Notes under the pieces: generated by a model | The model's input: only the letters and a program-made list of their open reading frames with translations | Told to the model about the DNA's origin: nothing | Database searches by the model: none | Assembly (NCBI GenBank): GCA_963722305.1 | Contig: CAVRKE010000001.1 | Location: 12,312-76,311 of the forward strand | Source of the DNA: Candidatus Levyibacteriota bacterium | GTDB taxonomy: Bacteria > Patescibacteriota > Microgenomatia > Levybacterales > UBA12049 | Length of the DNA stretch: 64,000 nucleotides | Direction of reading: 5' to 3' | Made by a program: the position numbers and the translations under genes | Part shown: piece by piece, positions 15,487-57,507 of the stretch | Layout: each line of letters starts with the position of its first letter | How positions within the stretch are numbered: position 1 is the stretch's first letter

Positions 15487-15487
15487 G

Positions 15488-32759: not shown

Positions 32760-32769
32760 ATCAGAGAGC

Positions 32770-32798: not shown

Positions 32799-32804
32799 TT
32801 AGCT

Positions 32805-33248
32805 ATGGATTTTATTACTTTGGAGAATTATCAGACCGCAAAATTGATTAAAGACGTCGTTATTCATCCGTATAAAGTAAACCAAGACGCCTCCGGAGTA
32901 TTGGTTGAGACATTGAGAAGGGACTGGGCTGATATCTACAATAACGGCCGTGAATTTTTTATGCAGTACTATTCCGAGACTCCTTCGGGGTTGGCCAGAG
33001 ACGAGGATGTTTGGCATTATCATCCGACTGTCCAGGATGACCGATTTTCGGTGGTTAAGGGAGAAATTGTGGTAGCAATAGCGGATAACAGGCAGGATTC
33101 GGAAACAAAAGGACTGTTGAACCTTTTTTATATCAATGCTAGGAAAAACCCTTATCTTGTTTTAATTCCGCAGAAGAACCTTACACGGTTTTATGGTAGT
33201 CTCCAAAGAACCGGCAATTCTTATAAATTTTCCGACCGGCCTTTATAA
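32805..33248 (+). CDS. Cupin-fold protein, RmlC/FdtA-like sugar-nucleotide epimerase/isomerase superfamily
   Basis: 147 aa. 'DEDVWHYHPTVQDDRFSVVKGEIVV' (cupin HxH...E motif) and 'DASGVLVETLRR', similar to the RmlC-type GVLRGLH region. Confidence 0.4.
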   Translation: MDFITLENYQTAKLIKDVVIHPYKVNQDASGVLVETLRRDWADIYNNGREFFMQYYSETPSGLARDEDVWHYHPTVQDDRFSVVKGEIVVAIADNRQDSETKGLLNLFYINARKNPYLVLIPQKNLTRFYGSLQRTGNSYKFSDRPL

Positions 33249-33359
33249 TACGGCTGAAGAGGGAAGAGTTCCTTACGCTCAGGAAAATATAAAAACCGAT
33301 AACGGGGAAATTTTTAATTGGGATTTGGTCAGAAAAGAATTCCCGAATTTATCTTCTCG

Positions 33360-34118
33360 ATGATGGGAAAAATAAAATCACTATCTCTTGTTGTACCTGC
33401 CTATAAGCAAGAAAGAACAATTGTAAAAGACCTACAGAACTTGGATAAAGTTTTATCTTCGTTGCCTTATAAACATGAAATAGTGGTGGTGGCGGACGGG
33501 TTTCTTGACAAAACTTACGGAAAAGTTTTATCTCTTAAATCAGAAATCAGAAATCTTAAGGCATATGGTTATAAGGAGAATATAGGAAAAGGTTCGGCGA
33601 TTAAATTTGGAGTGGAAAAAGCAAGCGGAGACGTGATTGGATTTATTGACGCGGGAATGGATATCGACCCATCGGAAATATCCCTAATGCTTGATTTAAT
33701 GGACTGGAATAAGGCGGATATAATTTTGGCCAGCAAGCTTCACCCGGAATCAAAAGTAAATTATCCTTTTTGGAGAAAAGTTCTTTCCTGGGGATACCGG
33801 ATGTTGGCACATGCTTTATTTGGTTTTAATGTTAAGGATACCCAGGTTGGATTTAAAATTTTCCGCAAAAAAGTCGCCAAAGAAGTATTCGCAAGAATTA
33901 TCGTCAAGCGGTTTGCTTTTGACATAGAAGTTTTAACTGTGGCATATAAATTAGGGTACCGGCGGATTTTTGAAGCGCCGGTAAAATTGGATTTTCGGCA
34001 GGCAAGCAGTATTACCTCTACAAATTTTTGGAGAACAATTTTTTGGATGCTGTGGGACACGGCAGCTGTTTTCTATCGTTTGAAAATCTTACATTTTTAT
34101 GATAAGCAAAAGAAATGA
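33360..34118 (+). CDS. GT2 glycosyltransferase (DPM1/DPG-synthase-like)
   Basis: 'LSLVVPAYKQERTI', 'EIVVVADGFLDKT' and 'IGFIDAGMDIDP'. ATG at 33360, with TTG alternatives upstream. It contains (AAATCAG)x2. Confidence 0.7.
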   Translation: MMGKIKSLSLVVPAYKQERTIVKDLQNLDKVLSSLPYKHEIVVVADGFLDKTYGKVLSLKSEIRNLKAYGYKENIGKGSAIKFGVEKASGDVIGFIDAGMDIDPSEISLMLDLMDWNKADIILASKLHPESKVNYPFWRKVLSWGYRMLAHALFGFNVKDTQVGFKIFRKKVAKEVFARIIVKRFAFDIEVLTVAYKLGYRRIFEAPVKLDFRQASSITSTNFWRTIFWMLWDTAAVFYRLKILHFYDKQKK

Positions 34119-35213
34119 ATATTTTAATTCTTAATTGGCGTGACCCCAAAAACCCAAAAAGTGGAGGAGCGGAGATTGTAACATTGGAGCATGCCAGAGC
34201 GTGGGCCAAAGGCGGACACGTAGTGACGTGGTTTACATCGAGATTCAAAAATGCCAAGAAGCAGGAGAATATCGAAGATGGTGTAACCATTGTGCGACGT
34301 GGTAATTTCATCACCGTTTATTTGCTGGCCCCGCTATTTTATTTATTTTCCAAACAAAAATTCGACTTGGTAGTTGATGAAATCCACGGTCTTCCATTCT
34401 TCACGCCGCTTTTTGTCAGAGTTCCTAAAATCGCTTTTATTCATGAAGTGGCCGGAGAGATTTGGGATTACATGTTTCCTTTTCCGGTTAACAAAATTGG
34501 CAAAATTGCAGAGCCTTTATATTTTAGGCTTTACAGAAATGTCAGATTTTGGACCGACGCCAACTCTACTGTTGACGATCTGGTGAATAAAGGGATAAAA
34601 AGAAAGAATTGCGTCGCGATTAATTGCCCAATCAGCCATCCGTCTTTGAATATGCTTCCCAGAAAAGAGAAAACCCCGACTTTTATTTTTGTTTCCAGAG
34701 TGGTCAAAATGAAAGGCATTGAGGAAGTCATCAGGGCCTTTTTCTATATTTTAAGAGAGCTGAAAGACGCCAAGCTTTGGATAGTGGGAGACGGAGACCG
34801 AAGGATATATCCAAGACTTAAGAGAAACGATAAGTACTTACGCCATTAGTTCTAAGGTCAAATTCTTCGGCCGGGTTTCGGAAAAAGAAAAATTTGCATT
34901 ATTAAAAAGAGCCAATCTGCTGCTGCATGGTTCGGTGAAAGAAGGCTGGGGATTGGTGATAATCGAAGCGGCGAGCCAGGGGACTCCGTCGGTGGTTTAT
35001 AATGTGGCTGGTCTTCGCGATTCGGTCAAGAACGGAAAAACGGGAATTGTTTTGAAAGAGAATAATTGTAAAGAAATGGCCAGAGAGGCAATCAATCTTT
35101 ACCAAGACAAAAAAAGATATCAGCTTTTCCAAAAGAATGGGTTGGTTTGGGCGAAAAGCCTAAATTGGAACGACGCGACCAGAAAAAGTTTAGCCCTCAT
35201 TAATTCACTATGA
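34115..35213 (+). pseudogene. GT4 glycosyltransferase interrupted by a single frameshift near 34785-34846
   Basis: The N-domain ORF 34115-34849 ends '..KLWIVGDGD'. The C-domain continues in another frame from about 34785: '..ISSKVKFFGRVSEKEKFALLKRANLLLHGSVKEGWGLVIIEAASQGTPSV' (E-x7-E). The two halves are collinear with an intact GT4. Confidence 0.5.
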
Positions 35214-35899
35214 AAAACATCTTGAATCAGAAACCCAATAGTAAATTAACTGGGAGATTAAAGTTCTCAACGCTACTTGTCGAAGATAAGGATTTAAGAA
35301 ATAAGAGATTATTAGATATTGGCTGTGGGTTCGGATGGTTTGAGCTGAACGTATTAAAAAGAGGTGTAAAGCAGGTTGTAGGAGTAGAAATAAGTTCGGA
35401 GGATTTAAGAACTGCTAAAGATAATATTAAAGATAAGAAAGCAATTTTTAAGATTGGAGGCGCTTTAAAGTTGCCTTTCCAGGATAATTATTTTGATACG
35501 GTTGTTGCATGGGAAGTAATTGAGCATATACCAAAAAGTACGGAGAATAAAATGTTCAAAGAAATAAAAAGAGTGCTCAAAACAAAGGGAAAATTTTATC
35601 TATCTACGCCATACAATTCATTTTGGTCTACCGTGTTCGATCCCGCGTTTTGGTTAATTGGCCACAGGCATTATTCAAGCGAAAAATTGATAAAACTCGG
35701 AAAGGAAAACAATTTTAAAATTATATCCGTATATACGAAAGGTGGTTGGTGGAATCTGCTGGGTTTATTGAACATGTATTTTTCAAAATGGGTTTTGAGA
35801 AGACAGTTATTGTGGAAAACACTTTTTGAAAAAAAAGATAATGAAGAATATGCAAAAAGAGAAGGGTTTATGAATATTTTTGTAAAATATGAGAAATAA
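35210..35899 (+). CDS. Class I SAM-dependent methyltransferase
   Basis: 'LLDIGCGFGWF' and 'FDTVVAWEVIEHIPK'. Confidence 0.8.
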   Translation: MKNILNQKPNSKLTGRLKFSTLLVEDKDLRNKRLLDIGCGFGWFELNVLKRGVKQVVGVEISSEDLRTAKDNIKDKKAIFKIGGALKLPFQDNYFDTVVAWEVIEHIPKSTENKMFKEIKRVLKTKGKFYLSTPYNSFWSTVFDPAFWLIGHRHYSSEKLIKLGKENNFKIISVYTKGGWWNLLGLLNMYFSKWVLRRQLLWKTLFEKKDNEEYAKREGFMNIFVKYEK

Positions 35900-36713
35900 G
35901 ATTGTCGTATCAATTATAATTCCAACCTTTAATAGTGAAGCGCATATCGGCAGATGCTTAACTTCCATAAAAAAACAAACTTATAAAAATATTGAGGTTT
36001 TAGTCGTCGACCAGGATAGTAAGGATGCTACCGAGAAAATTGCTCATGATTTTGGAGCAAGAGTTATTAGAGTAAAAAAACCAAAATTTTATTCTCCTCC
36101 TTCCAAATCGAGAAATATTGGAGCGAAAGAAGCGAAAGGACAAATATTTTATCATCTTGACAGTGACATGCAGTTATCAAAAGGTTTAATTAAGGAAGCT
36201 GTAGAATTTTTTGATAAACAACAAAATATTGGAGCTCTCATAGTTCACGAAGAAGACTTGACTAATGGATTTACGAGTAAATGTAAGGCACTTGAGAGGA
36301 GATGTTATTGGGGAAATGATAATATTGAGTCGGCGAGAATAGTGAGAAGAACAATTTTCCAAAAAATTCATGGGTATGATGAAAATATAAGCTCAGGTGA
36401 AGATTTCGATATTCATAGAAGATACAAAAAATATTGCGATATTGGATTCTGTAAGAATGTTGTCTATCATGATTTAAGAAACCTAAGTTTTACAAAAACA
36501 CTGATGAAGAAATTTAATTATGGTAAAACAGCGAGTACTTATTTTAAAAAATCAGGACAAAGTGGCTCTTCAGTTCTAAAAGAGGAGCTATTTTGCTATC
36601 TAAAGAATTACAGGTTGTTGCTTAGGGAACCTATTGAGGCGGTGGGGATGATTGTTATGAAATTCACGGAAGTGTTCGTTGGAGAATTGGGAATAATAAG
36701 AAGTAGAGTATAA
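35889..36713 (+). CDS. GT2 glycosyltransferase
   Basis: 'VSIIIPTFNSEAHIGRCLTSIKKQTYKNIEVLVVDQDSKDAT' and 'HLDSDMQL'. Confidence 0.8.
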   Translation: MRNKIVVSIIIPTFNSEAHIGRCLTSIKKQTYKNIEVLVVDQDSKDATEKIAHDFGARVIRVKKPKFYSPPSKSRNIGAKEAKGQIFYHLDSDMQLSKGLIKEAVEFFDKQQNIGALIVHEEDLTNGFTSKCKALERRCYWGNDNIESARIVRRTIFQKIHGYDENISSGEDFDIHRRYKKYCDIGFCKNVVYHDLRNLSFTKTLMKKFNYGKTASTYFKKSGQSGSSVLKEELFCYLKNYRLLLREPIEAVGMIVMKFTEVFVGELGIIRSRV

Positions 36714-36717
36714 GCTT

Positions 36718-37812
36718 ATGAAAATTGGCGTTAATTCCAGAATTTTTCAAACCAGCAAAACAGGTATTCCATACTACGTGGAGCATTTATATAAAAATTT
36801 ATTAATACTGGATAAGGAAAACAAGTATATTTTTTTTCAGACAGAGAAGAAAAAAAAATTAGGGAAAACGGTCACTATTAATTTGCCAAACAATTCCCTG
36901 GGCGCATTCCTATTCGATAATTATTTTGTTGAAGGCATTATTCAAAAAGAAAAAATTACTGTTTTTCATGGGCCGGCAAATTTACTTCCTTTAAAAAAAA
37001 ATAGTGGCGTAAAATACGTTGTTACTATTCATGATTTATCCTTTTTAGCTTTAAAACAGAACAGTGGACTAATTTTTAGAACATATTATAAATATTTTGT
37101 AGGATGGTCCTTAAATCGCGCCGACATTATTGTGGCCGATTCGTTGAATACGAAAAAAGATATCGAACGTTTTTACAAGATACCGCCAGGGAAAATAAAG
37201 GTAGTATATCTTGGTGTTAATGATATATATTTTCATTCAAAGCCCAGAGAAAAGATTATTAAAGAAAAATATTATTTTTCTATCACGACTCACCAGAAGA
37301 GAAAAAATATAACAGGCGTATTAGATGCAATAGCGCTTACTCCAAGATTGCGGGAATACAAATATGTCATTGCTGGCCTAATCCCAGAGAATCAGTTAAA
37401 AGAATTAAAACAACAAATTGCAAAACTTAAGCTTCAAAATTGTGTTATTTTACTGGGATATGTAAGCGAACATCAGCTTGTAAGTTTGTATCAGAATGCG
37501 GAATTTTTCATATACCCCTCATTGTATGAAGGATTTGGTTTTCCTGTTTTGGAAGCTATGGCATCTGGATGCCCGGTGATTACTTCCAATAACAGTTCGC
37601 TCACAGAAATTACTCCAGACAAAAAATGGTTGATCAATCCGTTAAACGTTGATGACATGGCGAAAAAAATGAAGGAGATAATTAGTCTATCCGAAGAAGG
37701 CATAAAATCATTGAAGGAGCGTAATCGTGTTTTTGCGCAACAATTTACCTGGGATAAAACGGCCAAAGAAATGCTGGATGTTTTTAATTCATTGAAGCCA
37801 AAAAGTGTCTAG
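36718..37812 (+). CDS. GT4 glycosyltransferase
   Basis: 'EGFGFPVLEAMASGCPVITSNNSSLTEI'. Confidence 0.8.
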   Translation: MKIGVNSRIFQTSKTGIPYYVEHLYKNLLILDKENKYIFFQTEKKKKLGKTVTINLPNNSLGAFLFDNYFVEGIIQKEKITVFHGPANLLPLKKNSGVKYVVTIHDLSFLALKQNSGLIFRTYYKYFVGWSLNRADIIVADSLNTKKDIERFYKIPPGKIKVVYLGVNDIYFHSKPREKIIKEKYYFSITTHQKRKNITGVLDAIALTPRLREYKYVIAGLIPENQLKELKQQIAKLKLQNCVILLGYVSEHQLVSLYQNAEFFIYPSLYEGFGFPVLEAMASGCPVITSNNSSLTEITPDKKWLINPLNVDDMAKKMKEIISLSEEGIKSLKERNRVFAQQFTWDKTAKEMLDVFNSLKPKSV

Positions 37813-37847
37813 GCTAAGTTAAAACGTTAGAGTTTTATTTACAGGAT

Positions 37848-37876
37848 TTGTGAGATTTAGTAGTTACGTTTATAAT
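37848..37876 (+). promoter_or_regulatory. Candidate sigma70-like promoter (TTGTGA-17-TATAAT) in the 116-bp gap before the methyltransferase at 37929
   Basis: TTGTGA 37848-37853, a 17-nt spacer and TATAAT 37871-37876. Confidence 0.35.
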
Positions 37877-37928
37877 GCTAATAAGAAAAATCTATTTGAC
37901 TGTCGTTATTATCTAGAATTTTACTATT

Positions 37929-38603
37929 ATGTCAGACCGCTCTCATCAGCAATATAATAAAAATTATTTTAACGATACTACTGAAAAGGGGGACAGGGTT
38001 TTAAGCATATACAAGACATTCCTTGCAGAACAGGGAGTTAACCTTTCTGGAAAGAAAATTTGCGATATTGGCTGCGCCAGAGGGTCTTTTTTTGAAGGCC
38101 TTGTTGATAAAAATACTTGTTATGGTTACGATGCTTCTGAATTTGCTATTAATTCTTGCAAAAAAATTTTTGGACCAAACGCCTATTTTCATTGTTTGGA
38201 TTTAAACACGGAATCACTCCCTCCGGAGAAGAAATTTGACGTAATAACTTTATTTGATGTGATTGAACATTTGAATAATTTTACTAATCTTAAAAAAATT
38301 ATCAATAATAACCTTAAGCGTAGAGGTATTTTAGTTGTGACAACCCCCAATGCCAATAGCTTTATGAGATTTATTGCTGGTCATACAAAATATACAGGCG
38401 AATTAGACTCAACTCACCATATGCTTTTTACTCCTTATACATTAGATTTCTTCCTGAGAAAATGCTCTTTAGTAAAAAAATGCCTTGCGACACCGTATAT
38501 ATTTTATTTTAAAAATAATCCATTAACCCAAAAAATTTTGTTTGGCGGACAAATTTTTGCAATTTATAAAAACACTTCTGTAACCAAAAACCTGATAAAA
38601 TAA
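37929..38603 (+). CDS. Class I SAM-dependent methyltransferase
   Basis: 'ICDIGCARGSF' and 'FDVITLFDVIEHLNNF'. Confidence 0.8.
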   Translation: MSDRSHQQYNKNYFNDTTEKGDRVLSIYKTFLAEQGVNLSGKKICDIGCARGSFFEGLVDKNTCYGYDASEFAINSCKKIFGPNAYFHCLDLNTESLPPEKKFDVITLFDVIEHLNNFTNLKKIINNNLKRRGILVVTTPNANSFMRFIAGHTKYTGELDSTHHMLFTPYTLDFFLRKCSLVKKCLATPYIFYFKNNPLTQKILFGGQIFAIYKNTSVTKNLIK

Positions 38604-38612
38604 TTAAGCAAT

Positions 38613-39778
38613 ATGCAAACTGAAATTTTAGTCTCTCCTCTTCAGATAAGCGTTATCAGTGACACCGGCAGTGAGTTCGTTTGGTCAAGCATATTTCGGG
38701 AATCTTTGCGCGATTATTTCAAAAATAAGGGTTTAAAATTTGTCGTTGGCTTTGATGAAGAAAAATCAGCTAAGGATACAACTTCTTATCTAAAAAAGCC
38801 GTTAACGCCTTTATCCATATCTAATAAATCTTATTATAATTTTTCAATATTTTACAACCTTTACAACTGTCTTCAAGTTTTTGGCCGACCAAAGATTTTA
38901 TGGCATTTCCTGCTGTTTTCTTTTGGGCGAACATTTAACTTAGGAATTATTTTCAGATTAGGCCAGAAGTGTGTTATCGGACCCATTCAACCGACCTTAT
39001 CTGTTCAAGATTTAAACCTTTCAAATAAAGCAGATTCAAAAGACTTATTAGTATCATTGGTCTTAATATTTAATCGGTTATTTTTTTACCTTTCAGTATT
39101 AACGCTTAAGAGAGCCGACATAATTTTTGTTGTACCCAAGAACAAAAAAATCAAATGGCTAAATTTGGCGTTGATAAAAACAGAATTAAGACTGTTGGAT
39201 ATGGAACAGTTTTATTAAATAGAAAACCAAGTCGAAATAACGAAAATAAGGTTAAGTTTATTTGCTCGGGGTGGTTTACAAATAGGAAAAATCAGCTGGA
39301 GATAATAGAGGCAGTCAATAATTTGCCTGAAGATATTGTTAATAATATAGAAATAAGCTTCTACGGGGAAGGTCCGTTACTAAAAGATGTTATTCAAAAA
39401 TGTAACCCCAGAATAAAAAAGGCAGTCAGGTTTATGGGGAAAAAACCTCGGGAAGAGGTGTTGGCTGCGCTTTCCGAGTCTGACGTGCTCTTATCGACAA
39501 GCATGTCTGAAGGATATTCTCAGTCGGCATTGGAAGCCGTTGGTGCGGGAGTAGCTTTAGTCTCCACGCCTGTGGGTGGATTTAAGGAAATAATTGCAGA
39601 AGCAAAAAACGGAGTGATTCTAGATTACAGGTCGGAGTCAGTAGAAAAAGTGATAATGGATTTAGTTTTAAATAAAGACCTTCTTACTATTTATAAACAG
39701 AGATCGCGTCGTTTTGCAGCCTCGCATACATGGGAAAAGCAAGTAAAAAAAATGTTGCATTTTATAAATAATGACTAA
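38613..39778 (+). pseudogene. GT4 glycosyltransferase with a frameshift in an A7 run near 39150-39175
   Basis: The N-part (38613-39218) ends '..RADIIFVVPKNKKIK'. The C-part (39155-39778) starts 'AKFGVDKNRIKTVGYG' and carries 'SEGYSQSALEAVGAGVALVSTPVGGFKEII' (GT4 C-domain). The junction lies at 'acaaaaaaatcaaatgg'. Confidence 0.5.
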
Positions 39779-40519
39779 GTTTGATAACACATATTATCGG
39801 AAAATAATAATTATTCGGAATTTTTAGATAATCAGAATCCTGAATCTTTTATAGATACGTAGATTTTATAACAAAATATTCCAAGAAGGGTGGTCGGTTT
39901 TTGGATGTTGGCTGCGGAACCGGGTTAGTACTGAAAATGCTTAAAGATAGGGGAGTTGAAGCGGTTGGTATAGAAGTTTCCAAAACCTCAGTTAACAAAT
40001 GCAAGAAAAAGCAGCTGAATTGTTTTTATTATGATGGAAGAAGGGTCCCTTTTAAAGATAAGTGTTTTGATGTGGTGGGTTCTTTTAATGTTCTGGAGCA
40101 TACAGATAACGCTATTGAATTTCTTAATGAACAATACCGGGTATTAAAAATTGATGGATATTTAATTGTTGTTTGCCCAAATTTTCTTTCGGTCACAAAT
40201 GGTTATCACTGGCATACCAGTGGATTTTTAAAACAAAATAAAAAATTCTATACAGATAGTGAAGAAATTTTTTTCCTCGGATGCGTATTTTGACAAAATG
40301 GATATCATTGAAAGAGAAAACTTCCAAGTAGACGATGATGCTTGTAACGTAACAAATCCAATCGATATTCTTAAATGGGCCAGAAAAATGAATTTAAAGC
40401 TAATATATTGGTCATCCCAGGAACAGGATGTAAGCGGCATAAAGAAAGTTCTTGATAGAGGTTTATTGAGGTACCTTTTAGGAGCTTCCTTTATGGTATT
40501 TTATAAAAATAGAACATGA
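39772..40519 (+). pseudogene. Class I SAM methyltransferase with three or more frameshifts
   Basis: Frame a reads 'MTKFDNTYYRKIIIIRNF*' at 39772. Frame b reads '..YFRYVDFITKYSKKGGRFLDVGCGTG..' through 40293. Frame c reads 40259-40519 ('..ILKWARKMNLKLIYW..'). The pieces are collinear with the intact methyltransferase at 37929. Confidence 0.5.
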
Positions 40520-43500
40520 AGAAAATCCCAATCATATTTCTCATCGTGATTTCCTTTATATCTAATTTTGCCTGGATAAGCAGCCTGTCGATTCTTACTA
40601 GCGGAGATCGGCTATATCAGCAGCCGGCTACACTAAAAGAATTGGTAAAGTTGACCGTCAATTTGGTTCACCACGTCAATCGGCGGAATAAACATTGCTG
40701 GCTCATTTTATCCTTTTGAGCTGATGTTTGGACTATTGGCTAAGTTAGGTTTTAGTTTTGGGTTGATTGAAAGAGTTGTCTTTATGTGGCCAGTTCTTAT
40801 TGCATTACCAGTATTTAGCTACATACTTATCAAAAAGAATGTTAATAACACACTTGCCGCGGTTATAGGGTCATTGATTTATTCATATAACACTTATTTT
40901 TCCGAAAATGAAAACCGGACAGTTAACGCTATTAATGGCGTATGGTCTTGCGCCCTTAGTTTTCCTGTTTTATCAGAAAGCTTTGGAAAAAAAAGAAATT
41001 AAATATGTTTTGCTGGCGGCAATATTTGGATTTATTGTTAGCTTTTACGAGTTCAACAAACATTTTTACATCTATGCATTGTTTTTATTTCTTTATTTTT
41101 TTTAATTTATTGATGTACTTTTTTGTTGAAACAGAAAAAAACAGTAGGTAAGGTTATAAAAGTTTGTTTAATTGCGGGTGTAACAGTATTGATAGATTTA
41201 TTGCTAAATTTATATTGGTTATTGCCATTAGAGAAGGTAGGAGCATTAAGCACAAACGCAATATTTATAATAGAAGTTTGTTTTGTAATGAGTTTTTGAA
41301 TATCAAATTATGCGATTACACTGTTTCATCCCTTCTGGACGGGGAAGTTTGCCCTCAGCCTTTATTGTTCAGAATATTCCTTCATATTTTTGGTTAATTC
41401 CTATATTCGCATTTTTGGGTTTATATTTGAATCGGAAAAACAAAAATGTCTTATTTTTTGGAATTATTACTTTGCTTGGAATATTTTTGACAAAACAAGT
41501 TGCAATACCTTTTACGGGGGTTTATGGATGGTTATTTGCTCATTTCCCCGGCTTTAACGCATTCAGGGAAGCCAGTAAGTTCTATTTCTTAGTAGTGTTT
41601 GGTTACTCTGTTTTGATTGCAGGTTTTGTAGATTGGGTCTGGAAAAATTGTACTAGAGAGTTACGGATATTGGGAAAATATATTTTAGTATTCGTAATTG
41701 CAGTGATTTTCCTATGGAATGTAAAACCGTTCATCACCGGAGAAATCGGTACACTGTTTGTACCAAGGGAAATTCCGGCGGATTATCTGGTATTAATAAT
41801 TTTATTTTAAAGCAAAACGATTACTTTAGAACTCTTTGGCTTCCGACGAATTCCCGCTGGTTGGTTTACACGAATGATCGTCCCGAAGTAAGTATGGCAG
41901 ATGTTCTTCAGGCCAATTGGCAGGGATATAAGCAATATAGCCAGATTACCGCAAAGGAAATGGTTAATTTTTTGCATTATCAATATGCTAGCGACCTATT
42001 AGATATGTCTTCAATTAAATACGTAATAATTCCTTTGCAAGACAAGATTAACGCTGATGATTTTTTTGTTTATTATGGAGAACCACGGCAATATTACATT
42101 AATGACCTAAATCAGATTAAATATTTGCATAAAATCAATGTCGGCACAAAAAACATTGTCGTTTACAAGAACGAGAATTACAAACCTCTATTATACAACC
42201 AGCAATCAAGAATCAATAAACAAGGAACAAGATTATCAAACTGTAGATTTTAAATTTATCAATCCGACTGTATAAAATCAGATTAACGAATATCTCAAAA
42301 CCCGTTTATCTGAACTTCTCCGAAAGCTATCATCCCGATTGGAAAATAAGAGTTGGGCATTTTAAATGGCTTGACGCTTTGACCAAAAAGAACTATTTCC
42401 TTCCCGATAAATTTCATCTTGAGAATGACGCTGGTTTGAATTCATTCTATATTAATTCAAGCCAATTTTGTGAAGTTGAGAACGGATGCGTTCGAAACAA
42501 AGGTGGTTCTTATGATATCAACCTGACTCTATATTTTATGCCACAAAGCTACTTGTATTTAGGATTAATAATTAGCGGTGGAACTTTAATTATTGTTTTG
42601 GGATACCTATTGTTTATTTTTTCCAGCTGGGCTGGATCTCGTTTCTCTCGAGGTAAACATGTATGAAAGAAAAAATTAAAAAATTTCGGAAAGATAAAAA
42701 ACTGATGAAACACGTAATCGCTATCTTATTACTTTTAGGGCTTTGGGTGTTGTTGACAATTTTATACGTTGTAAATTTTGATACAAGTTTTTCGATATGG
42801 TCGTATAACCATCAGAGTACCGATATTAAAAATCTTAATTATAATTTGATTTATAAAGGCGAAACTTTTAAGGGCGAATTTATGGCACAAGACAATAATT
42901 TAGGGATTGTTTCTTTAAGATTTCAAACATACATTAGACCTCCTTATAGCCTTGAAGACCAATATCTATTTAAGATAAAAGAGTCAGGCGCTAAAAATTG
43001 GTATTACCAGAACACTTACAGAAACGGGTTAATTTATGATGTTCCTCTTTTCCCGTTTGGTTTTCCGCAAATCCCAGATTCCAAAGGAAAGACTTATGAT
43101 TTCGAAATTACAGCTCTTAATACGAATTCCGTTAACGCATTATCTATAAGTACCAGATATCCGGTTCTTCAATCAAAATATAAATATTCCGGGCCTGAGC
43201 TTTTGCATAACAAAAAGGAACTTATCAGCTTTCTAGTTATTAAATTTTCCAATGCTTTTAAAACACCTGACGTAATTTTTACTTCATTTATCTATTTTTT
43301 ACCTTTTCTTTTTTATCTTATTTGGATTTCCTTCTTGAAAAAATCATGCGTCCGGTTACCACTAGAATTGAAGAAACAATAGAAAGGTTAGAGAAAACTT
43401 TTCTTGGGCCATTTATAATTTTGTTAAAAAAATTTATTTATAATTTGGATATATTTCTTATATTCATAGTTTTAGTAGATATTTTAATAATTCAGTTGAC

Positions 43501-43633
43501 CAACGATTTAGTTTATCTTGTTATTGCAGCTCTTTGGATAGCGACGTTAAGAGTTTATAAAGAAGATAGTAAAGAGACATTTATTGTAGGTTTAGCATTT
43601 ATTGCTTTGTGTCCTCTGTTTTACTGGCTTTAA
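40516..43633 (+). pseudogene. Large YfhO-like polytopic membrane protein gene fragmented into nine or more ORF pieces by frameshifts
   Basis: Pieces at 40516, 40724, 40908, 41164, 41310, 41714, 42379, 42663 and 43322 change frame 1>2>0>1>0>2>1>0>2. Translations are collinear with the intact YfhO-like gene at 13195, for example 'SGDRLYQQP' and 'IGGINIAGSFYPFELMF' versus 'FAGTPLLANFQSAAFYPLNLLF'. The junctions lie in homopolymer runs. Confidence 0.45.
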
Positions 43634-43715
43634 AATCCGGACCAACAGCCGAGCAATTCGGAGCGTGGGCGTTTATATTTTTTTAGTTGCCGGAACTATC
43701 CAAGCCTTACTAGAA

Positions 43716-46419
43716 TTAAAGTCCTCGAAGGAAGTTAACTAATTTATGGAGTTTAGCCTTTTTACGGTGAATAAAGCTTAAGCGTAGTATAAAAATGATG
43801 AACAAAACAAAAGAAGTAGCGGATAGAAATAGACAAAATCTATAGATGATATTAACCGGGTATGATATTGAAGAAATCTTTTTGTCAGTTGCGATGAATG
43901 TCATTCCATACCCGTCGCTGATGTATTTTACTGAAGGATTGTTGCTTTTCCATTGCTCTCCCCAGGTAAATTTATAAGTAATATATTTAGTTCGTTTATC
44001 GACAGAAATAAAGTCAAAATTGGAAGTACTAAAATTATTTTCCGCGTTTTCTTTTTTGTAAGCTATTTAAGTTTAGTGGACTCATACTGGCTAAAATGTT
44101 GGAGATATTGGACTCAGCTTTTACCAGTTGTTGGTCAGGCACCAATAATAATGAATCTATTATGAAGCTAATTCCTTTATTGGAAAACAAGTAAATGTTA
44201 TTTGTCGGTGTATCTATAGTCACAATTCCTAAATCTTGCCAGATCAATTTGCCATTTGTATTTAAATACCGATCTATTTTTTTGATATTATATTTGAATT
44301 GTGAACTTTGTATTAGAGTTTACGGTTAAGGCCTTAATTAGTATGTGATATTTCCCTTTTAAATTTGTGACTGGAACCTTAAGAACACCCGTTTCAGGCA
44401 ATGACTGGACAGATGCCCCGCTTGTAAAAAGATTTCCTGCCTGTTGAATATCCCGCATTTTATACGGTTCATAATTTATATAAGTTTTATCCCAGTCCCA
44501 TGCCGGAGTTAAAATGTCTACAGAATACCTAGAAATTAGAGATTCAGCGGTTAAAGTTAGGATTGGATTTTTTACATCGAAGAATATGTTTTCTCCTTTT
44601 AGGATGGATGGATCAATTAAACCAGAGTTGACATCTTGATTTAGTAAAATAACCGGTAAATTTTGATTGATTTTCTTTATCTTATTTACAGTGTTAAAAT
44701 CCCCAATGGCAAAAATAGGTTTTTGAGTTGTCATAAGGGAGGAAGCATTAATTACTTTAAACAAAAGAAGATTTTTTGTTCTTGAATATAAAGATAGATC
44801 TTTATTCCCCAGTAGCATTTTCGCCGATTCGGTAGCAATATCTTTTTCCGCCTGGAGAGAAATAATTGAGGTATCAAGCAATAAGTACTTTACAGCTAAA
44901 GGAGCAAGATAAGTAGTGTCGTAATTATTTAAAAACGAGTTATAGGCGAAAGAACTGAATTGATTAGAATAATTATCCGGATAATTGGTGCTGTCAGCCA
45001 AGGGCAGGGATAAAGGAATTGCCATGTCAAAAATTGTAGATGAGGATTGGGGAGAGATATTATCGTAGAATGGATAGCCCCGAGAGTCCTTGAGTGTTTG
45101 GGATGGTGAGTATTCTTTCTCCATTTGACGATAGCTTGCTAATAGTCTTTTGCATTTGGACGTATCCTTCGGGGATAAAAGTCGGTCTGATTGTTTTTTG
45201 AAATCCACAGTAATCAACTGCCAAGCCAACATGAGTAGTGCCAGGAAAGAAATTAAAATAATAATTGTACTCCAGAGAATTTTCTTTTTGGTTCCGGAGA
45301 ACGATGCAATTATCAAGAAGATGAGAATAGGGCAATTCCGGCGATAAAACGTGTTGGGTCTCTAAAAAAATGTAAAAAGGGAATGTATTTATAAAGTAAT
45401 ACGCTAATCTGCGCAAAAGGCTCATTAAGGCCTTTTGCCAAAAAAATAAAAATTAATAAACAGGTAAAAAATAGCCAACGCCTTTTTTTATTTAGGCAGA
45501 ATAAGATAAATGTAGCAATAATACGGGATAAATTGAAGATAATTAATTAAGCTCCAGGGAGTAAATTTATAAGGAAAGCTAACAGGAGCAAACCTTAGGA
45601 TATTTTCAAGTTGGGCGCCAGAACCGTTAAAGCGAACGGTCCCGAGAGAGAAATATTGGTTTGGAGCTGTGAAGAGTTTTTCTGGGTAGAGAATGGACGG
45701 AATAAAAATATAGGCGTTTAATAGAATAAAAATGAGCCCTGTCAGAAAATAAAATCTAAATAAAACAAAAAACTGTTTTCTGGATTTGAAGAATAATAAA
45801 CATAGATAAAAAAAATTAAATAAGAAGGTGATAATTAAGAAGTGCGGCTGCGCAAATGTGACCAGGCTTATTAAGATTGCGTAGGTTCCACAATATAATA
45901 ATATTTTTTTTTGGGTAAAGATTGTCTGTTTTAAGTAATTAAGGGGAATGGTAATGATAAAAGGCATTAATGCGTAAACGAGATTTAGCTGCCAGAAGCC
46001 GGTTATAATTCTGTCTAAAATCCAATAGTTGAGAGAGAAAAATAATGCCCCGATTATTACATAAACGTCGATTTTCTTAATTAGCCTTAATGCCAGGATA
46101 AAACATAAAAAAGGGAGAATAATGCTAAAAACTTCATAAAATTTATACCAGTTATAGCCAAAGACATCTTTAAATAATCCTAGGAATATTGCTACAGGTA
46201 AGCTTCTGGCTCCGGAATCGGTTCCCAAATGAAGTCAATTGTATTCTGCGAGGCGATACCTTGGAAATAAGTCCCAAGCCCTGTTAGGTTAGTTAGAATA
46301 TTAAGTTTTTGTAAAATTAATGCTAAGAAATTGTTAGTATCAATAAATTCCCCAAACAGTAGTAGTCTTAACATAGCAGCATTATACAGAATATTAACAA
46401 ATAAATATCGGTTTCTCAA
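43716..46419 (-). pseudogene. Second large membrane-protein gene (YfhO-like N-terminus) on the minus strand, fragmented into six or more pieces; convergent with the previous pseudogene
   Basis: Minus-strand pieces at 46192-46419, 45488-46228, 45060-45425, 44288-45316, 44035-44247 and 43716-43904. The N-terminus reads 'FGEFIDTNNFLALILQKLNILTNLTGLGTYFQGIAS'. The C-terminal pieces resemble the + strand gene's C-terminus weakly. Confidence 0.4.
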
Positions 46420-46471
46420 GCGTAGTTGAAAGAATATTTAACATGGACTATATTAGAACAAGAATTATTTA

Positions 46472-48017
46472 ATGAAAAAGCTTAAATGGGTTTTATTATT
46501 CCTTATTCTCTTTCTCGCATTTTTGCTTGGGGCAAGAATCATTTTATCCGGTGACTTTTTTTACCTCTACGACCAGGCCAGAGACTACCTGCTAGTCAAA
46601 AATGTTGTCGTTAACCACAGTTTAATCTTAATCGGCAACCGCAGTGGCTTGGGAGGGTTTTTCCATGGGCCAATCTGGATTTACCTGCTTGTTCCGGTAT
46701 ATATCTTAGCCAAAGGCAGTCCTTTTGGCTTGGCTTATTTTTACGTCGGGCTTGAGCTTTTTACAGTTTTTGCGCTTACTTAATCGGTGCAAAACTCTAT
46801 GGCAAAAAAGCAGGATTGTTTATCTCATTGTTGACGGCATTGTCTCCCGCTGTTTGGTCGACGGTCAAAAATACGGTCAGTGCCAACATCAGCCGTTGGT
46901 TTATCTTGGACTGTTTTATTTTCTGGTTCAGTTTTTTCGGGGCGACAAAAAAGCTTTTATTTTCGCGGCTTTTCTGGCGGGTCTGGCTCTCCAATTTGAA
47001 ACAGCTTTTTCTTTAGTGCTATTTCCGACCGTCATCGTGTTTTTTGTTTTAAATAAAATCGCCATCGAAGATTTGAAAATAATCTGCTTAAGTCTTATTT
47101 CTTTCGTCTTAAGTCTTACATCTTTTATCTTGTTCGATCTTCGCCACAGATTTTTAATGACCCACGCCATTATTAGTGCTTTCGGTGGTGGGCAAAAGGG
47201 GAGCGGTTACCTTGGTTTTACGGATAGACTGATAAGCCATCTCAACGGATTAATCGGAGTATATAAAGATCCGGTATTTAGTCAGGATTTATTATCAGTA
47301 TTGTTTTTGGCGGCGATTTTTATCTTTGGCTTAGTGCTAGTTTTAAAAAACAAAAAAGAAAAGTATCGAAAAGAGTTTATCTTTTTGCTATTTTTTCCGG
47401 CTGTTTTCTTTGGATTTACTATGTTTTACCCCTATCCGGTTTGGCCGGAATATGTTTTTGGGTTACTTGTTCCGGTCGCGTTCGCCTTCTACCTGGCAGT
47501 TAGAACTGTTTGGAAAAACTCTTTTGGTAAAGTCTTAATTACTTTATTTTTTCTGATTACTTTTTTTCATGTTTTTGTCTTTCTACAAAATCAGTACTTA
47601 ACAAAATACACCAGACTTAACTCGGCCGGCTCTTATCAAAACCAAAAAGCAGTGGTCGAATGGGTCTATCAAAATGCCGGACGAGACGCTAGTCGAAGCG
47701 GAAACTTTGGCTATTTTGTTTATACTCCGGAAGTTTTTACCCACGGGATGGATTATTTGTTTTATTGGTACGGCAAAAAAAATCCAACGGTGACTTTTGA
47801 GAGCAAAAAGGACGTAACGACCTACTTGATTTTATATCCGCATTTGGCAAACGATAACGGAGCTTATGATTTTTGGAAGAAAAATGTTTTGCATACCCAG
47901 GGGAAAGTGATTTTGACAAAAACATTTTACGGAGGAATAACAGTGCAAAAGCTATCAATTACTGCTTCCGAACCGCCGGTTGACCCGAATTATTATCAAG
48001 GTTTAATTTTTAGATAG
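46472..48017 (+). pseudogene. Family B membrane protein (DxxRD motif) with two frameshifts, near 46760-46785 and 46870-46900
   Basis: ORF 46472-46783 ('YLYDQARDYLLVKNVVVNHSLILIGNRSGLGGFFHGPIWIYL') continues in a second frame ('AYLIGAKLYGKKAGLFISLLTALSP', track ORF 46816-47016). It then continues in a third frame, 46725-48017. All three segments are collinear with the intact paralogs at 25966 and 51562. Confidence 0.5.
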
Positions 48018-49951
48018 TGAATATTTTATTATTTTTACCGCTTTTTATTTTGGTCGTATTGGTCACATTTTATATACCCGGAAGAGTGATTTTGGGACAG
48101 CAGAAAAACCTTTCCGGTTTAGGAAATTTTGCGGTTTCAATCATTTTGGGAATTGTTTTGTGGGGTTGGCAGGGATATATATTCGGTTTTTTGCATCTTC
48201 GAAATTTAAGTTACGTTTATCTTCTGATATCTTTAGGGCTTTTCATCTACAAGAAATACTATTCTTTTAGAATACCCAAAATTAATCTTCGAAAGTTCGA
48301 TTGGATAGCAATCGTAATTGCGACTGTTGGGGTTTTTGGCCAAATCATTCCATATGCCAAGAATGGTCTGATAACTAAGATGGGTTTATTTATTAGCAGT
48401 TACAATAACGTGGATCAGGTTTGGCACGCGACATTAATAGAAGAATTGGTAAGAAGATTTCCGCCTAACGAACCCGGTTTATTTGGAATTGCTCTTATCA
48501 ATTATCATTTCTGGTTCCATTTAGTGACGGCAGAATTAATCAGGGTTTTTCATTTGCCATTATTCCAGACACAATTTATAGGAATGTATGCACTTGGGCC
48601 GATTTTATTAGCTTTAATCGCTTATCCATTAGCGGCAGCAATATATAATTCGAAATTATTTATAAGGTTAGTTTTCTTTTTTCTTTTCTTTTCAGGAGAT
48701 GCTGCGGGTTGGGTTATGCTCTTATTGCACCATAATTTTGCATTTCGCGTGGAAGGATTATTTGAAAATGCTACAACTTTTATGGATGCGCCGGGGAGAG
48801 GATTCGCCGTTATTATTGCCTTGGCCGGTTTATATCTTCTTTTTAAGCATAAGGACAAACTGTCTTGGAGATTAATTGTAATTACCGGTTTATTGTTTGG
48901 CAGTCTTGCGATGTTTAAAATCTATATTGGCATACCTTTTATGCTCGGCCTGTTTTTCTTAAGTCTTATCAAAGGGCTAAAAAGAAGTTTTTCCGTACTT
49001 TGGTCGTTTATAATCGCCAGCATACTCTCTTTAATTCAATTTTTGCCGTTTAATGCTTCTTCCGGTGGTTTGTCCTTTCTTCCGGTTGAAGTACCGCGTG
49101 AGTTTATCGCCCAAAAAGCCTTAAATTTGGGTTTTATTGACCAACGCTGGACAATTTACATGACGCACCATAATTATCTCCGACTTTTAGAATACGGGAT
49201 TTTAATGACGGCCATTTATTTATGCGTTGTGTTCGGATTAAAAATTTTGGCTGTCATCCCGTTTAAAAAAACGATTAAGGTTTTGGGACAAAATTATTTT
49301 CTCTTTCTATATTTTATTTTATTATCTTCACTTGTGTTAGGACTTTTCTTCTATCAAAGAGTTGGAGGTGCAAATATCTGGGAATTTTTTATGGCCAGCT
49401 CGCTTATTTTAAGTATCCTTTTCTCGTTAAGTCTGTCTGTATTGTTGGCCAAATTTAATAAAGTAGTTGCTGTTTTGGTTGTGATTATAATCATTGTCTT
49501 TACGATCCCACGCTGGATTTATTCAGTTAATTATTATTTGCAAGCAGATTATTTTTCTGCTTTTCATGGAGTTTCTAATTCGGAGCTTAGGGTATACGGC
49601 TTTCTTGAAAATAATACGCCGAAAAACAGCACTCTTTTATTTATAGATCAACCAACTTATATAGCTTATTCTTCTTTGGCCAGTGTTCTAACTGAAAGAA
49701 ATTTGTTTTTTTCGGGAACCGGCGTTAGCCAAGTTGTTACACTGGAATATCTGAAAAGAGAGGAAGATGTAGCCTTCATAAAAACGAGTAAAGATTATAA
49801 AAAGGTGGAGCGAGTCTTTAAAAAAGATCAAATCAATTATGTTATTTTATATGAAAATACTCTAGCCGGTACAACCAGCGCTTTGCTAAACGATAAATTT
49901 CTTAAAGAGGCATTTTCCAACAGCACCGCGAAAATATTCAAGGTTAATTAA
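48017..49951 (+). CDS. Family C polytopic membrane protein (paralog of 16425-18395)
   Basis: 644 aa. Its N-terminus and 'FPPNEPG..NYHFW..ELIRVFHLP' loop are shared with 16425. Confidence 0.5.
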   Translation: MNILLFLPLFILVVLVTFYIPGRVILGQQKNLSGLGNFAVSIILGIVLWGWQGYIFGFLHLRNLSYVYLLISLGLFIYKKYYSFRIPKINLRKFDWIAIVIATVGVFGQIIPYAKNGLITKMGLFISSYNNVDQVWHATLIEELVRRFPPNEPGLFGIALINYHFWFHLVTAELIRVFHLPLFQTQFIGMYALGPILLALIAYPLAAAIYNSKLFIRLVFFFLFFSGDAAGWVMLLLHHNFAFRVEGLFENATTFMDAPGRGFAVIIALAGLYLLFKHKDKLSWRLIVITGLLFGSLAMFKIYIGIPFMLGLFFLSLIKGLKRSFSVLWSFIIASILSLIQFLPFNASSGGLSFLPVEVPREFIAQKALNLGFIDQRWTIYMTHHNYLRLLEYGILMTAIYLCVVFGLKILAVIPFKKTIKVLGQNYFLFLYFILLSSLVLGLFFYQRVGGANIWEFFMASSLILSILFSLSLSVLLAKFNKVVAVLVVIIIIVFTIPRWIYSVNYYLQADYFSAFHGVSNSELRVYGFLENNTPKNSTLLFIDQPTYIAYSSLASVLTERNLFFSGTGVSQVVTLEYLKREEDVAFIKTSKDYKKVERVFKKDQINYVILYENTLAGTTSALLNDKFLKEAFSNSTAKIFKVN

Positions 49952-49961
49952 CCTGCAAAGT

Positions 49962-51533
49962 CTACTTACGAACAGGTGTTACAAAAGAATAGTGGTAGAA
50001 GTTTAATTCTTCTTTTTGTTTAGGGGTAATTTCACTGACTTTAGTATTTAATACAAATAACCGGCTCCCTTTATTGTCTCTGTCAAGTTCCTGATACCTA
50101 TCGGCGTAATTTCCTAAAGCATATGGTACATAGTTTTGCCAAAGGCACTCACAGTAGACAAAAGTCGGAGGACTCCTTCGGAACATATCATCAATCGCTT
50201 TTGAAAGTTCCGGTACTCTGTCTACCCAGGCATAATCATAGGTCAGCGCCGAAGCATGCTTAATGCCGGCCTGCCAGTAAATAAGTGATTGGGCGGGTTT
50301 GATAAAAAGCGTGTCATTGTCGTTTTTCAGCATCTTAATTATCTGACCAATGTCTGTTTGTCTAGAATAATTAATATATAAATCTAAGGAAATATTTCTT
50401 TTGGAAGTAAGAGTTGGAAATATCGCGAAAATTAATACTCCCAGCCAAACCAGCAGGACTGAAGAAATGATTATTCTTGCCCTTTTTTTCGCTTCCGGCA
50501 ATAACGGAATGCAAAAGTAACCCGTGAAGGTAAGCAACAGCCCAAACCACGGCAATAGATGAAAGCCACTATAAATTTCTCCGCCAGCCGGGACATATCG
50601 CAGATTGGTCAGCCAAAGAAAAAGATATATCAGCAGGATTTCCAAATATTTTTTCTTCTTAATTAAATAGTAGGTAGCAATAAATAAACAGACTAGGAAA
50701 AATCTGATGACCCATATGATGTGGGTTTGGGGAGCACTCGGCAAGAAAGCCAAGATGGGAGAAAACATCCCCTGTAGATAAGAAATGACTCCGGTGTTTG
50801 TTACAGGAACGTAATATTTAAGATTTATAAATATGGCATCATGAATATAGCCGCCAAGCGAAGAAAACAGCAAAACCGGAATAATCACCGGCAGTAATCC
50901 AATGACAAAGGGAAGAATAAATTCGAGAATTTTTTTCCTCTGGTTATAGATTAAAAGAGCGGTGATTAACAACAGAAGCGGCCATAACGGAGCCAGCATA
51001 AAGAAAACAAAACCAACCAAAAATCCAAGAAAACAGTTTTCTATCGTCTGAAGTTTTCTTTGCCGTTCCAAAACAATTAGGGTAAGATAAACTGTCGGAT
51101 AAACGGCAAAAGTTTCCGCCAGAAAAAGATTACCAAACATCAGTATTTTTGTTAGCTCGTAAGTGACTATGAATGGTAATACCCGGTATTTGAAACGCAG
51201 GAAAAGCAAGATATCCCAAAGAATCGAAAAAAGAATGATTGCTTCTCTGTGCCTTCTAACTAATGAATGAATGCTGCTGGGATGTGTTACCTTTTCTATA
51301 CCTAGGCTAATGATGTATGTCAATGGCTGGTGTTGGGAAAAGACGTTGGAATATAATTTTTCTCCCTGGAGCAGAAAATTACCGACCGTAAAATTATCGT
51401 CTTCGTCGATGAATTGGATAGCAAAAATATTTCTTTCATAAAACAGAATAATTGCCAGAAAAAAAAGCAGAAAAAGTCCGATTATGAGAATATTCTTTTT
51501 GGAAGTGAATAATGTAGAAAGAGTTTGTTTCAC
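49962..51533 (-). CDS. Polytopic membrane protein with a C-terminal soluble domain, putative GT-C glycosyltransferase
   Basis: 523 aa. 'FIDEDDNFTVGNFLLQGEKLYSNVFSQHQPLTY' is an acidic first-loop motif plus an HPPL-like motif. About 11 TM helices. GTG start at 51533. Confidence 0.45.
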   Translation of the reverse strand: MKQTLSTLFTSKKNILIIGLFLLFFLAIILFYERNIFAIQFIDEDDNFTVGNFLLQGEKLYSNVFSQHQPLTYIISLGIEKVTHPSSIHSLVRRHREAIILFSILWDILLFLRFKYRVLPFIVTYELTKILMFGNLFLAETFAVYPTVYLTLIVLERQRKLQTIENCFLGFLVGFVFFMLAPLWPLLLLITALLIYNQRKKILEFILPFVIGLLPVIIPVLLFSSLGGYIHDAIFINLKYYVPVTNTGVISYLQGMFSPILAFLPSAPQTHIIWVIRFFLVCLFIATYYLIKKKKYLEILLIYLFLWLTNLRYVPAGGEIYSGFHLLPWFGLLLTFTGYFCIPLLPEAKKRARIIISSVLLVWLGVLIFAIFPTLTSKRNISLDLYINYSRQTDIGQIIKMLKNDNDTLFIKPAQSLIYWQAGIKHASALTYDYAWVDRVPELSKAIDDMFRRSPPTFVYCECLWQNYVPYALGNYADRYQELDRDNKGSRLFVLNTKVSEITPKQKEELNFYHYSFVTPVRK

Positions 51534-51561
51534 ACGACTAGTATGCTAGGAGCGTTAAGGA

Positions 51562-53124
51562 ATGTCAATAATCGCTAAAAATCTATGGTATTATAGTGAC
51601 AGAATGTTCTCCAAAAGATTTTTGAAATTATTTCTTGTCTTTTTTATTTTAATTAATTTATGTTTCTGTGCTTATCCGGTTTTGCACAATGATGTTGGGT
51701 ATAATACCGATACAGCCAGAGATCTTTTAATACTTCAAGACGTTGTTAGTACCCACAAATTACCTCTCATCGGACCTCACAGCGGCTTGACAGGACTTTT
51801 CCACGGTCCTTTGTGGGTCTACATTAATTTACCCGCTTTTATCTTGGGCAATGGTAATCCTGTTGTAGTCGGTTGGTTTTGGGTGTTTCTGATTGCGTGT
51901 GCAGTATGTTCCACTTACTATGTTGGGAAAAAGTTGTTTAACGATTACGTAGGGCTTTTAAGTGCTTTGGTAGTTACTCTAATGAGCATAAGCTATTCCA
52001 GTGGGCTGCTTAATCCTTTTGGCGCCGTAATATTTTCTCCCTTGTTTTTTTACTTTTTCTATAGATACGTTAAATCAGGAAAGCCTATTTATTTAGTATT
52101 GTCATTTTTTGTCACGGGTATTCTTATCCAGTTTGAAATTGTTTTTGGTGGGCCGATTTTAATTTTGTCCTTACTATTTCTGTTGTTCTTCCTTTTCAAA
52201 AAGAAAAAGCTAAAGCATTTATTTTCTGCATTTATTTTAATTATTCCATTGTCTACGTATATTGTATTTGAGCTAAGACATAACTTTTTGCAACTAAGGT
52301 CCATCATCGCCCAGGCTGGTTCCCACACCGGTGGCGCTAAAATGGCATTTTGGGCATTATTGCAGACACGAGTTGAGGGATTAGCGAATTCACTTTTATC
52401 TATTCCCAATGCTCCTTTTCTTTTGACAATATCCGTAATGTTGTTATTCATTTATATTGGTGTGAAAGCCTATAGGGATAAAAAACTCAAGAATAGGGAA
52501 TTCTATTTGTTATTTTTATATTTTTATCTGGGGTTTTGGCCACTGACGTTCTATCTTAACGGAGAAGTGATGGGCTATCACGTTTTGCCGTTTGTGCCGG
52601 TTGCTTTAATAATCTTATCTTCGAGTTATCTTTTGCTACGCAAGGAAATCCTGGCGGTGATTTTTGGTTTCGTGCTCTTTTTTAATTTCATCGTAGCACA
52701 AAATTCGTTACAGGCTTTTTCGGCAATGACGGGGCAAGGCACCGGCTCATGGAAGTTTATCCACCAGCTTGCCGAGTCGGTATTTAAAAATGCTCCTGCG
52801 CGGTTTGGCTATTTTTCTTTTACAGCCGACGAATTTGGCTATGGACCAAGATATGCGATGATTTTTACGAACAAAGAGTATCCGAAAAACTTAGCGCTAG
52901 CCAATACCAAAAGTTATGTTACTTATGCAATTATGGCGCCGACGGAAAACGGGGCAAACAACAACCGGGAGTGGTGGGTTAAGAATAAGGTAAGAATCGA
53001 CAATGCTCCGGTTAGTGTAAAAAATTACGCTAACGGGTACGAGGTAAACAAATACTCGTTAACCGACCAAGATATAAAAATTCCCTCAGACCCAAATTTA
53101 CTGAACGGGCTTTTCTTTCGCTAA
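51562..53124 (+). CDS. Family B polytopic membrane protein (putative GT-C)
   Basis: 'GYNTDTARDLLILQDVVSTHKLPLIGPHSGLTGLFHGPLWVYI'. AGGAG lies 9 nt upstream of the ATG. Confidence 0.5.
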   Translation: MSIIAKNLWYYSDRMFSKRFLKLFLVFFILINLCFCAYPVLHNDVGYNTDTARDLLILQDVVSTHKLPLIGPHSGLTGLFHGPLWVYINLPAFILGNGNPVVVGWFWVFLIACAVCSTYYVGKKLFNDYVGLLSALVVTLMSISYSSGLLNPFGAVIFSPLFFYFFYRYVKSGKPIYLVLSFFVTGILIQFEIVFGGPILILSLLFLLFFLFKKKKLKHLFSAFILIIPLSTYIVFELRHNFLQLRSIIAQAGSHTGGAKMAFWALLQTRVEGLANSLLSIPNAPFLLTISVMLLFIYIGVKAYRDKKLKNREFYLLFLYFYLGFWPLTFYLNGEVMGYHVLPFVPVALIILSSSYLLLRKEILAVIFGFVLFFNFIVAQNSLQAFSAMTGQGTGSWKFIHQLAESVFKNAPARFGYFSFTADEFGYGPRYAMIFTNKEYPKNLALANTKSYVTYAIMAPTENGANNNREWWVKNKVRIDNAPVSVKNYANGYEVNKYSLTDQDIKIPSDPNLLNGLFFR

Positions 53125-55971: not shown

Positions 55972-55976
55972 GAATT

Positions 55977-57483: not shown

Positions 57484-57507
57484 AATTTATTCGTCAACAT
57501 CAAGAAT

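Follow-up and report, generated by a model that had tools for sequence, protein, structure and literature searches.

A zone of interrupted genes in a glycan-biosynthesis island

We have analyzed a stretch of 64,000 nucleotides (the window) from contig CAVRKE010000001.1 of a Candidatus Levyibacteriota bacterium (assembly GCA_963722305.1), and within it the zone at positions 38613-48017, where adjacent genes are broken by frameshifts. The window has a G+C content of 37%, and nearly all of it is a same-strand array of glycan-biosynthesis genes. On comparison with Pfam these encode glycosyltransferases of families GT2 and GT4, methyltransferases, flippase-like Polysacc_synt proteins, an epimerase, and PMT_2 and YfhO membrane proteins, and they are accompanied by several paralogous families of large membrane proteins that have no Pfam match. 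This glycan-biosynthesis island, of more than 60 kb and rich in glycosyltransferases and in such membrane proteins, is ordinary for the group. An Rfam search of the window gave no hits.

The listing of open reading frames (ORFs) in the window contains only short ones across 38613-48017, the longest open frames being a few hundred bases, and long ORFs run across most of the remaining window outside 38.6-48.0 kb. The density of homopolymers is alike inside and outside this interval. A previous examination that used the letters of the window and its ORFs (hereafter the sequence-only reading) had drawn attention both to a broken zone between flanks of mostly long ORFs and to the similar homopolymer content of the two, and the ORF listing and our counts agree with it on each point.

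The exact protein encoded by the intact methyltransferase gene just upstream of the zone (37929-38603) was used as a look-up query, and led to two public contigs. One is contig_125583 of ENA assembly ERZ25039480 (L001), which is 21.6 kb long and matches the window at 30011-48623. The other is a Logan contig of run ERR11594402 (L002), 17.2 kb in length, which matches 34687-48618; through L004 and L015 the match extends to 51879. Further Logan contigs of ERR11594402, plus one of ERR11748453, were also compared with the window. L002 carries six uninterrupted genes across the zone, encoding proteins of 388, 249, 713, 358, 883 and 515 amino acids (aa), and the first four of these are intact in L001 too. 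The gene coordinates given below were obtained by mapping the intact L002 models back onto the window.

The six genes and their lesions

The first gene (38613-39778, plus strand; L002 3926-5092) encodes a GT4 glycosyltransferase of 388 aa, with a match to Pfam Glycos_transf_1 at E = 6.6e-24. It carries a single insertion or deletion (indel), a missing T at 39129 in a run of three T, and a substitution at 38914. The next (39771-40519, plus strand) encodes a class I S-adenosylmethionine-dependent methyltransferase of 249 aa (Pfam Methyltransf_11, E = 4.5e-20), and has three indels, at 39802, 39852 and 40230, together with three synonymous substitutions. The worst damaged gene follows (40516-42666, plus strand), with 23 indels and 19 substitutions. 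It encodes a membrane protein of 713 aa with a predicted GT-C fold, and the identical protein (P0022) is present in both ENA and Logan. Beyond it, a gene for a 358-aa protein of no recognized family and without a Pfam match (42663-43742, plus strand; L002 7969-9045) has three indels and two substitutions. The large gene that converges upon it (43716-46374, minus strand; L002 9019-11670, minus strand) encodes a membrane protein of 883 aa and carries 13 indels and four substitutions. L001 is also broken in this gene, at positions other than those of the window. The last of the six (46472-48017, plus strand; L002 11768-13315) encodes a membrane protein of 515 aa, called family B, which has no Pfam match; it has two indels, at 46772 and 46890, and four substitutions. 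Searches with tblastn identify it as a paralog of the genes at 51562-53124 and 25966-27432, and all three are distant kin of a gene with a PMT_2 match.

The sequence-only reading had labeled the first two genes GT4 and methyltransferase, which Pfam bears out. Its counts of three or more shifts in the methyltransferase gene and two in the family B gene correspond to exactly three and exactly two indels, and the convergent gene of ~2.7 kb that it had described as being in six or more pieces has 13. It had taken the number of broken genes to be five. We find six, its 3.1-kb YfhO-like gene being two genes that encode the 713- and 358-aa proteins.

The lengths of homologous proteins provide a check on the intact models. 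Homologs of the methyltransferase among the matches listed are mostly ~240-257 aa; the identical protein was not among the results of the homology search with the 249-aa sequence. At E ≤ 0.001 the 713-aa protein has 429 homologs, of which the best 120 are mostly ~700-740 aa. For the 883-aa protein there are 16 full-length homologs of 850-909 aa, with 26-46% identity. A scan of GTDB genomes using an alignment found only distant relatives of the last protein, among them one in a metagenome-assembled genome (MAG) of Candidatus Levyibacteriota; the same scan with the 883-aa protein as single query found no relative. Since the homolog lengths match in these three families, the intact models are the conserved ones.

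The few named homologs of the 713-aa protein bear the labels Woesebacteria or Patescibacteria group, plus one Methanococcoides. Together with the relatives of the 883-aa protein, these would probably place the organism among the Patescibacteria, near Levyibacteriota. Homologs on the GTDB contigs L007, L009 and L010 come from MAGs that bear the title 'uncultured Gammaproteobacteria bacterium', in one case from a contig of 1.3 Mb, and the homolog P0106 from a record with the name Methanococcoides sp. AM1. The Gammaproteobacteria and Methanococcoides labels probably reflect mislabeled taxonomy, or a co-cultured or contaminating genome of the Candidate Phyla Radiation (CPR).

The 713-aa protein is predicted to have a GT-C fold

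No Pfam family matches the 713-aa protein, even when the threshold is relaxed to E ≤ 5. The window does contain a true YfhO gene, at 13195-15486, which matches the Pfam family (PF09586) at 4e-24. Profile comparison of the 713-aa protein with this gene gave a weak alignment to the N-terminal membrane domain, with a probability of only 78%. An AlphaFold2 model of the 713-aa protein had a predicted local distance difference test score (pLDDT) of 89.3 and a predicted template-modeling score (pTM) of 0.88. When this was compared with the PDB using Foldseek, the best match was AftD (E = 5e-8, template-modeling score 0.54 when normalized to the query), followed by PglB, STT3, DPY19, AftA and ArnT. 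The model therefore indicates the GT-C fold of these glycosyltransferases, with multiple membrane passes and an extracytoplasmic domain. D31 is invariant in a G30-D31-W32 motif directly after the first helix, and may be the catalytic acidic residue expected of GT-C enzymes in the first extracytoplasmic loop. The earlier label of YfhO-like thus holds in the sense of the GT-C fold, but not as membership of the Pfam family.

Comparison with other assemblies of the same organism

A three-way alignment of the window, L001 and L002 covers 13.9 kb that is common to all. It contains 103 columns in which the window alone differs and 22 in which L001 alone differs; there are none private to L002, and none in which all three are discordant. 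At every lesion of the zone L001 agrees with L002, and not one lesion of the window occurs in another assembly. For the sites upstream, L005, from another ENA assembly, and the Logan contig L006 are in agreement with this.

The Logan contigs are 100.000% identical to the window over 7877-16085, 18686-26621, 30959-32798, 34806-38913, 47068-51879 and 54351-61230, a total of ~33.9 kb. A single difference, an inserted A at 34805, is associated with this sequence, and it is the sole difference between the window and L002 outside the zone. Because ~33.9 kb are identical save for this one position, the window and the Logan contigs are, as judged by sequence, from the same strain. Within the zone the identity to L002 is ~99%, and over half of the differences are indels. 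The 79 events in 38914-47067 comprise 26 insertions, 20 deletions and 33 substitutions, and 44 of the 46 indels are not a multiple of three.

These events are very strongly clustered. Of 80 differences between the window and Logan in 42,058 bp compared, 79 fall within 8,154 bp (binomial p ~ 3e-55), and 23 of them are clumped in 41001-41500. The divergence of the densest stretch, the 83 bp at 41054-41136, is estimated at ~18%. Gene conversion from a paralog was considered for this stretch and rejected, there being no donor sequence elsewhere in the window. We also looked for repeats at the edges of the zone as a possible cause of misassembly, and found none. The sequence-only reading had taken the clustering of the frameshifts as an argument against uniform sequencing error. 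Uniform error is indeed excluded; a local failure of consensus or polishing is not.

Of the 33 substitutions in the zone, 13 are synonymous and 20 non-synonymous, and 17 fall at third codon positions (one-sided p = 0.023).

Exact scanning of JGI metagenome contigs with a 53-mer pattern that tolerates both haplotypes gave no match, and searching the literature for the accessions of the run and the assemblies was likewise without result.

The indels are not enriched in homopolymers

Runs of five or more bases make up 6.6% of the true sequence, and four of the 46 indels in the zone fall in such runs, which is the background level. These four are at 41119 and 44052 (in each case T5 to T6), at 44277 (T6 to T7), and at 45193, within a run of T8. 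It had been suggested from the sequence that many of the junctions fall in A/T homopolymers, and these counts do not support that. Nor is the junction in the GT4 gene in an A7 run, as had been proposed. The A7 run at 39144-39150 is the same in the window and in L002, and the lesion is the T missing from the T3 run at 39129. A single reversible tract in each gene is not seen; the numbers of indels per gene are 1, 2, 3, 3, 13 and 23.

Isolated lesions outside the zone

Two further lesions that are private to the window lie upstream. The inserted A at 34805 (plus strand) splits the GT4 gene at 34115-35213, the true product of which is 365 aa. This base is absent from L001, L002 and L005, and L001 encodes the intact 365-aa protein. 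An inserted A at 33172 (plus strand) truncates a dTDP-sugar-isomerase-like (RmlC-like) gene at 32805-33248 to 147 aa. It is absent in L001 and L005, where the products are 185 and 180 aa respectively and match Pfam dTDP_sugar_isom. The position lies outside the flagged zone and was overlooked before. The earlier statement that the flanks are intact except for the GT4 gene at 34115-35213 therefore has to be corrected for this second gene.

Indel-rich patches in other assemblies, and apparent strain variation nearby

Patches that resemble the zone are found in the other assemblies, at other places. L001 has a private, indel-rich patch at 30617-32095, and differs there from the window, L005 and the Logan contig L006, which are in agreement. 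L005 has one of its own at 34261-36577, where the window agrees with Logan. A far worse stretch lies towards the end of the ENA contig (L001/L014), corresponding to 49-51.7 kb of the window, with 125 differences in 2.7 kb from the window and Logan, which are identical here. The 'decay zones' thus shift from one assembly to another, as is expected of consensus error and not of biology. The names of the ENA contigs, of the form contig_N, are in the style of Flye.

The same contig end provides an example of the consequences. The locus at 17.8-21.2 kb of ERZ25039480 contig_125583 (L014), equivalent to ~48-51.7 kb of the window, is riddled with errors, and the gene calls break up the proteins of 621 and 523 aa into pieces of 61-176 aa. 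Pieces of this kind are present in public protein collections.

A quite different pattern is found at 32816-34243. In this block L001 and L005 concur, and 21 substitutions and one indel set the window apart from them; no fewer than 15 of these substitutions are synonymous. The ratio of substitutions to indels is 21:1, compared with 33:46 in the zone. On either edge of the block the Logan contigs are interrupted, ending at 32798 and resuming at 34687, as would fit a strain bubble in the short-read graph. The block looks like a genuine polymorphism between strains, and so gives an internal standard for real variation, here in the form of single-nucleotide polymorphisms (SNPs).

The origin of the lesions

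We conclude that the zone is very probably a local patch of uncorrected consensus errors arising in sequencing or assembly, and not a property of the genome of the organism. We favor this because the lesions occur in one assembly only, consist mainly of indels and lie in clusters, and because the flanks are base-for-base identical to contigs of the same strain. A locally low-coverage or misassembled region was one of the alternatives raised by the sequence-only reading, and it is the one that our comparison supports, given that the lesions are private and are absent from two assemblies of the same strain that are identical over tens of kilobases. The source would be a long-read metagenome assembly of the Flye type, probably from Nanopore data, in which ~8 kb would have been built or polished from very few reads. 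This might happen if the cassette in the glycan island varies between strains, such that only the reads of a minor subpopulation cover it, or if a duplicate haplotype contig took up part of the reads.

Some considerations weigh against this conclusion. In long-read assemblies, consensus errors usually favor homopolymers, but those of the zone do not. The ENA and Logan contigs may not come from separate sets of reads. The low coverage of the patch and the sequencing platform of the source assembly are both inferred. Lastly, some of the substitutions may be true SNPs belonging to a haplotype that differs slightly, because they lean towards third codon positions and 13 of the 33 are synonymous. 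As a hint, this lean would fit a zone assembled from a few reads of a minor variant. One might go further, and since the third-position bias hints at a slight difference in the cassette, suppose that the zone comes from a rare co-existing sub-strain in which some of the frameshifts are genuine, and that an accessory glycosylation cassette is being lost in a CPR sub-population. We see only a slim chance of this.

The zone might alternatively record a recent and true pseudogenization of the six-gene cassette in the strain or subpopulation of the window, with the sister population in ERR11594402 remaining intact. The glycan island is highly paralogous, making redundancy plausible, the SNP block shows that there is real strain heterogeneity close by, and the mild excess of third-position substitutions points in the same direction. 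Yet such decay would have had to place 79 mutations in 8.15 kb against one in 33.9 kb of other sequence, with indels exceeding substitutions, when the real variation in the neighborhood has the opposite composition. It would also have to account for a stretch of some 18% estimated divergence at 41054-41136 without a donor in the window, for intact alleles at every lesion in two assemblies and no lesion shared with any, and for equivalent patches elsewhere in other assemblies of long-read style. Pseudogenization of a redundant paralog block had been proposed from the sequence alone. In view of the intact versions in the same strain, the preponderance of indels and the near absence of divergence in the flanks, we regard it as highly unlikely. 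A further reading, which is extremely unlikely, is that Logan and ENA represent another strain in which the genes are intact, and that the window contains a chimeric join to a divergent, degraded haplotype whose real sequence it shows faithfully. Breaks in the Logan contigs at 32798, 34687 and 51879, and the end of L001 at ~51.7 kb, do suggest a complex assembly graph at the island, and the mild synonymous excess in the zone would be in keeping with a second haplotype. However, a divergent haplotype is expected to differ mostly by synonymous SNPs, as at 32.8-34.3 kb, and not by frameshifts, whereas the zone is ~99% identical to L002 with indels making up most of what differs, and there are no repeats at its edges.

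Slipped-strand changes in homopolymers that switch surface-glycan genes on and off, also raised in the sequence-only reading, have a negligible probability here. Glycosyltransferase genes are classic phase-variable loci in other bacteria, and the indels at 41119, 44052, 44277 and 45193 do sit in runs of T5 to T8. But four of 46 indels in runs of five or more is what is expected from the 6.6% of the sequence that such runs occupy, and a gene with 13 or up to 23 indels is no reversible switch. Moreover, the A7 run that had been taken for the junction in the GT4 gene is unchanged, and comparable tracts elsewhere in the window are untouched.

Other genes of the island

Among the island proteins without a Pfam match are those encoded at 16425-18395, 29266-30453, 43716-46374, 46472-48017, 48017-49951, 49962-51533 and 51562-53124. 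Six of these are large membrane proteins (515-883 aa) and one is a protein of 395 aa. Some of them pair as paralogs, at 27-32% identity. The ORF listed from 48017 (48017-49951) has its called start downstream, at 48086, giving a product of 621 aa. The gene at 57508-60666, encoding 1052 aa, has only a weak match to Wzy_C.

A stand-alone ORF of 189 aa at 54211-54780 has only a weak match to Glyco_transf_4, the N-terminal domain of GT4 enzymes, with E = 4.7e-4, below the Pfam cut-off. It adjoins a full-length GT4 gene at 54856-55971, and its stop codon is confirmed by a Logan contig of 100% identity. This ORF may represent a glycosyltransferase that is genuinely truncated or split.

Relation to known systems and implications

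Indel errors that fragment genes in long-read assemblies have already been well described (PMC12007338, Kastor; bioRxiv 10.1101/2020.03.12.974238). The lesions of the zone resemble the errors of Nanopore and PacBio assemblies in that frameshifts and premature stop codons mimic pseudogenes, are private to one assembly, and vanish on comparison with a short-read or better counterpart of the same genome. They are unlike the errors described there in being packed into one patch of 8 kb within a window that is otherwise essentially free of error, and in not being enriched in homopolymers. The single patch and the lack of homopolymer enrichment therefore point to a local loss of depth or polishing, rather than to a systematic bias in base calling.

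The zone also has a superficial likeness to two biological systems. In the pseudogene clusters that arise by reductive evolution, for example in host-restricted bacteria, there are likewise adjacent frameshifted genes and redundant paralogous families. The lesions of the zone differ in being unshared and richer in indels than in substitutions, with flanks that are undiverged and intact copies at the same locus. Contingency loci, in which homopolymer tracts make glycosyltransferase genes phase-variable, are known from Campylobacter, Haemophilus and Neisseria. Here too surface-glycan genes look frameshifted, and some of the indels are in poly-T runs; but unlike those of contingency loci, the indels of the zone are not enriched in tracts, and there are many per gene at arbitrary positions.

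Frameshifts in a metagenome assembly can cluster locally and still be sequencing errors. If accepted as it stands, the window would add six false pseudogenes and ~25 spurious protein fragments to the catalogs, and the zone could be misread as reductive decay or as phase variation in the surface-glycan island of a CPR bacterium. The zone is better treated as a flag of quality, and comparison with the other assemblies yields corrected models for its genes, encoding proteins of 388, 249, 713, 358, 883 and 515 aa.

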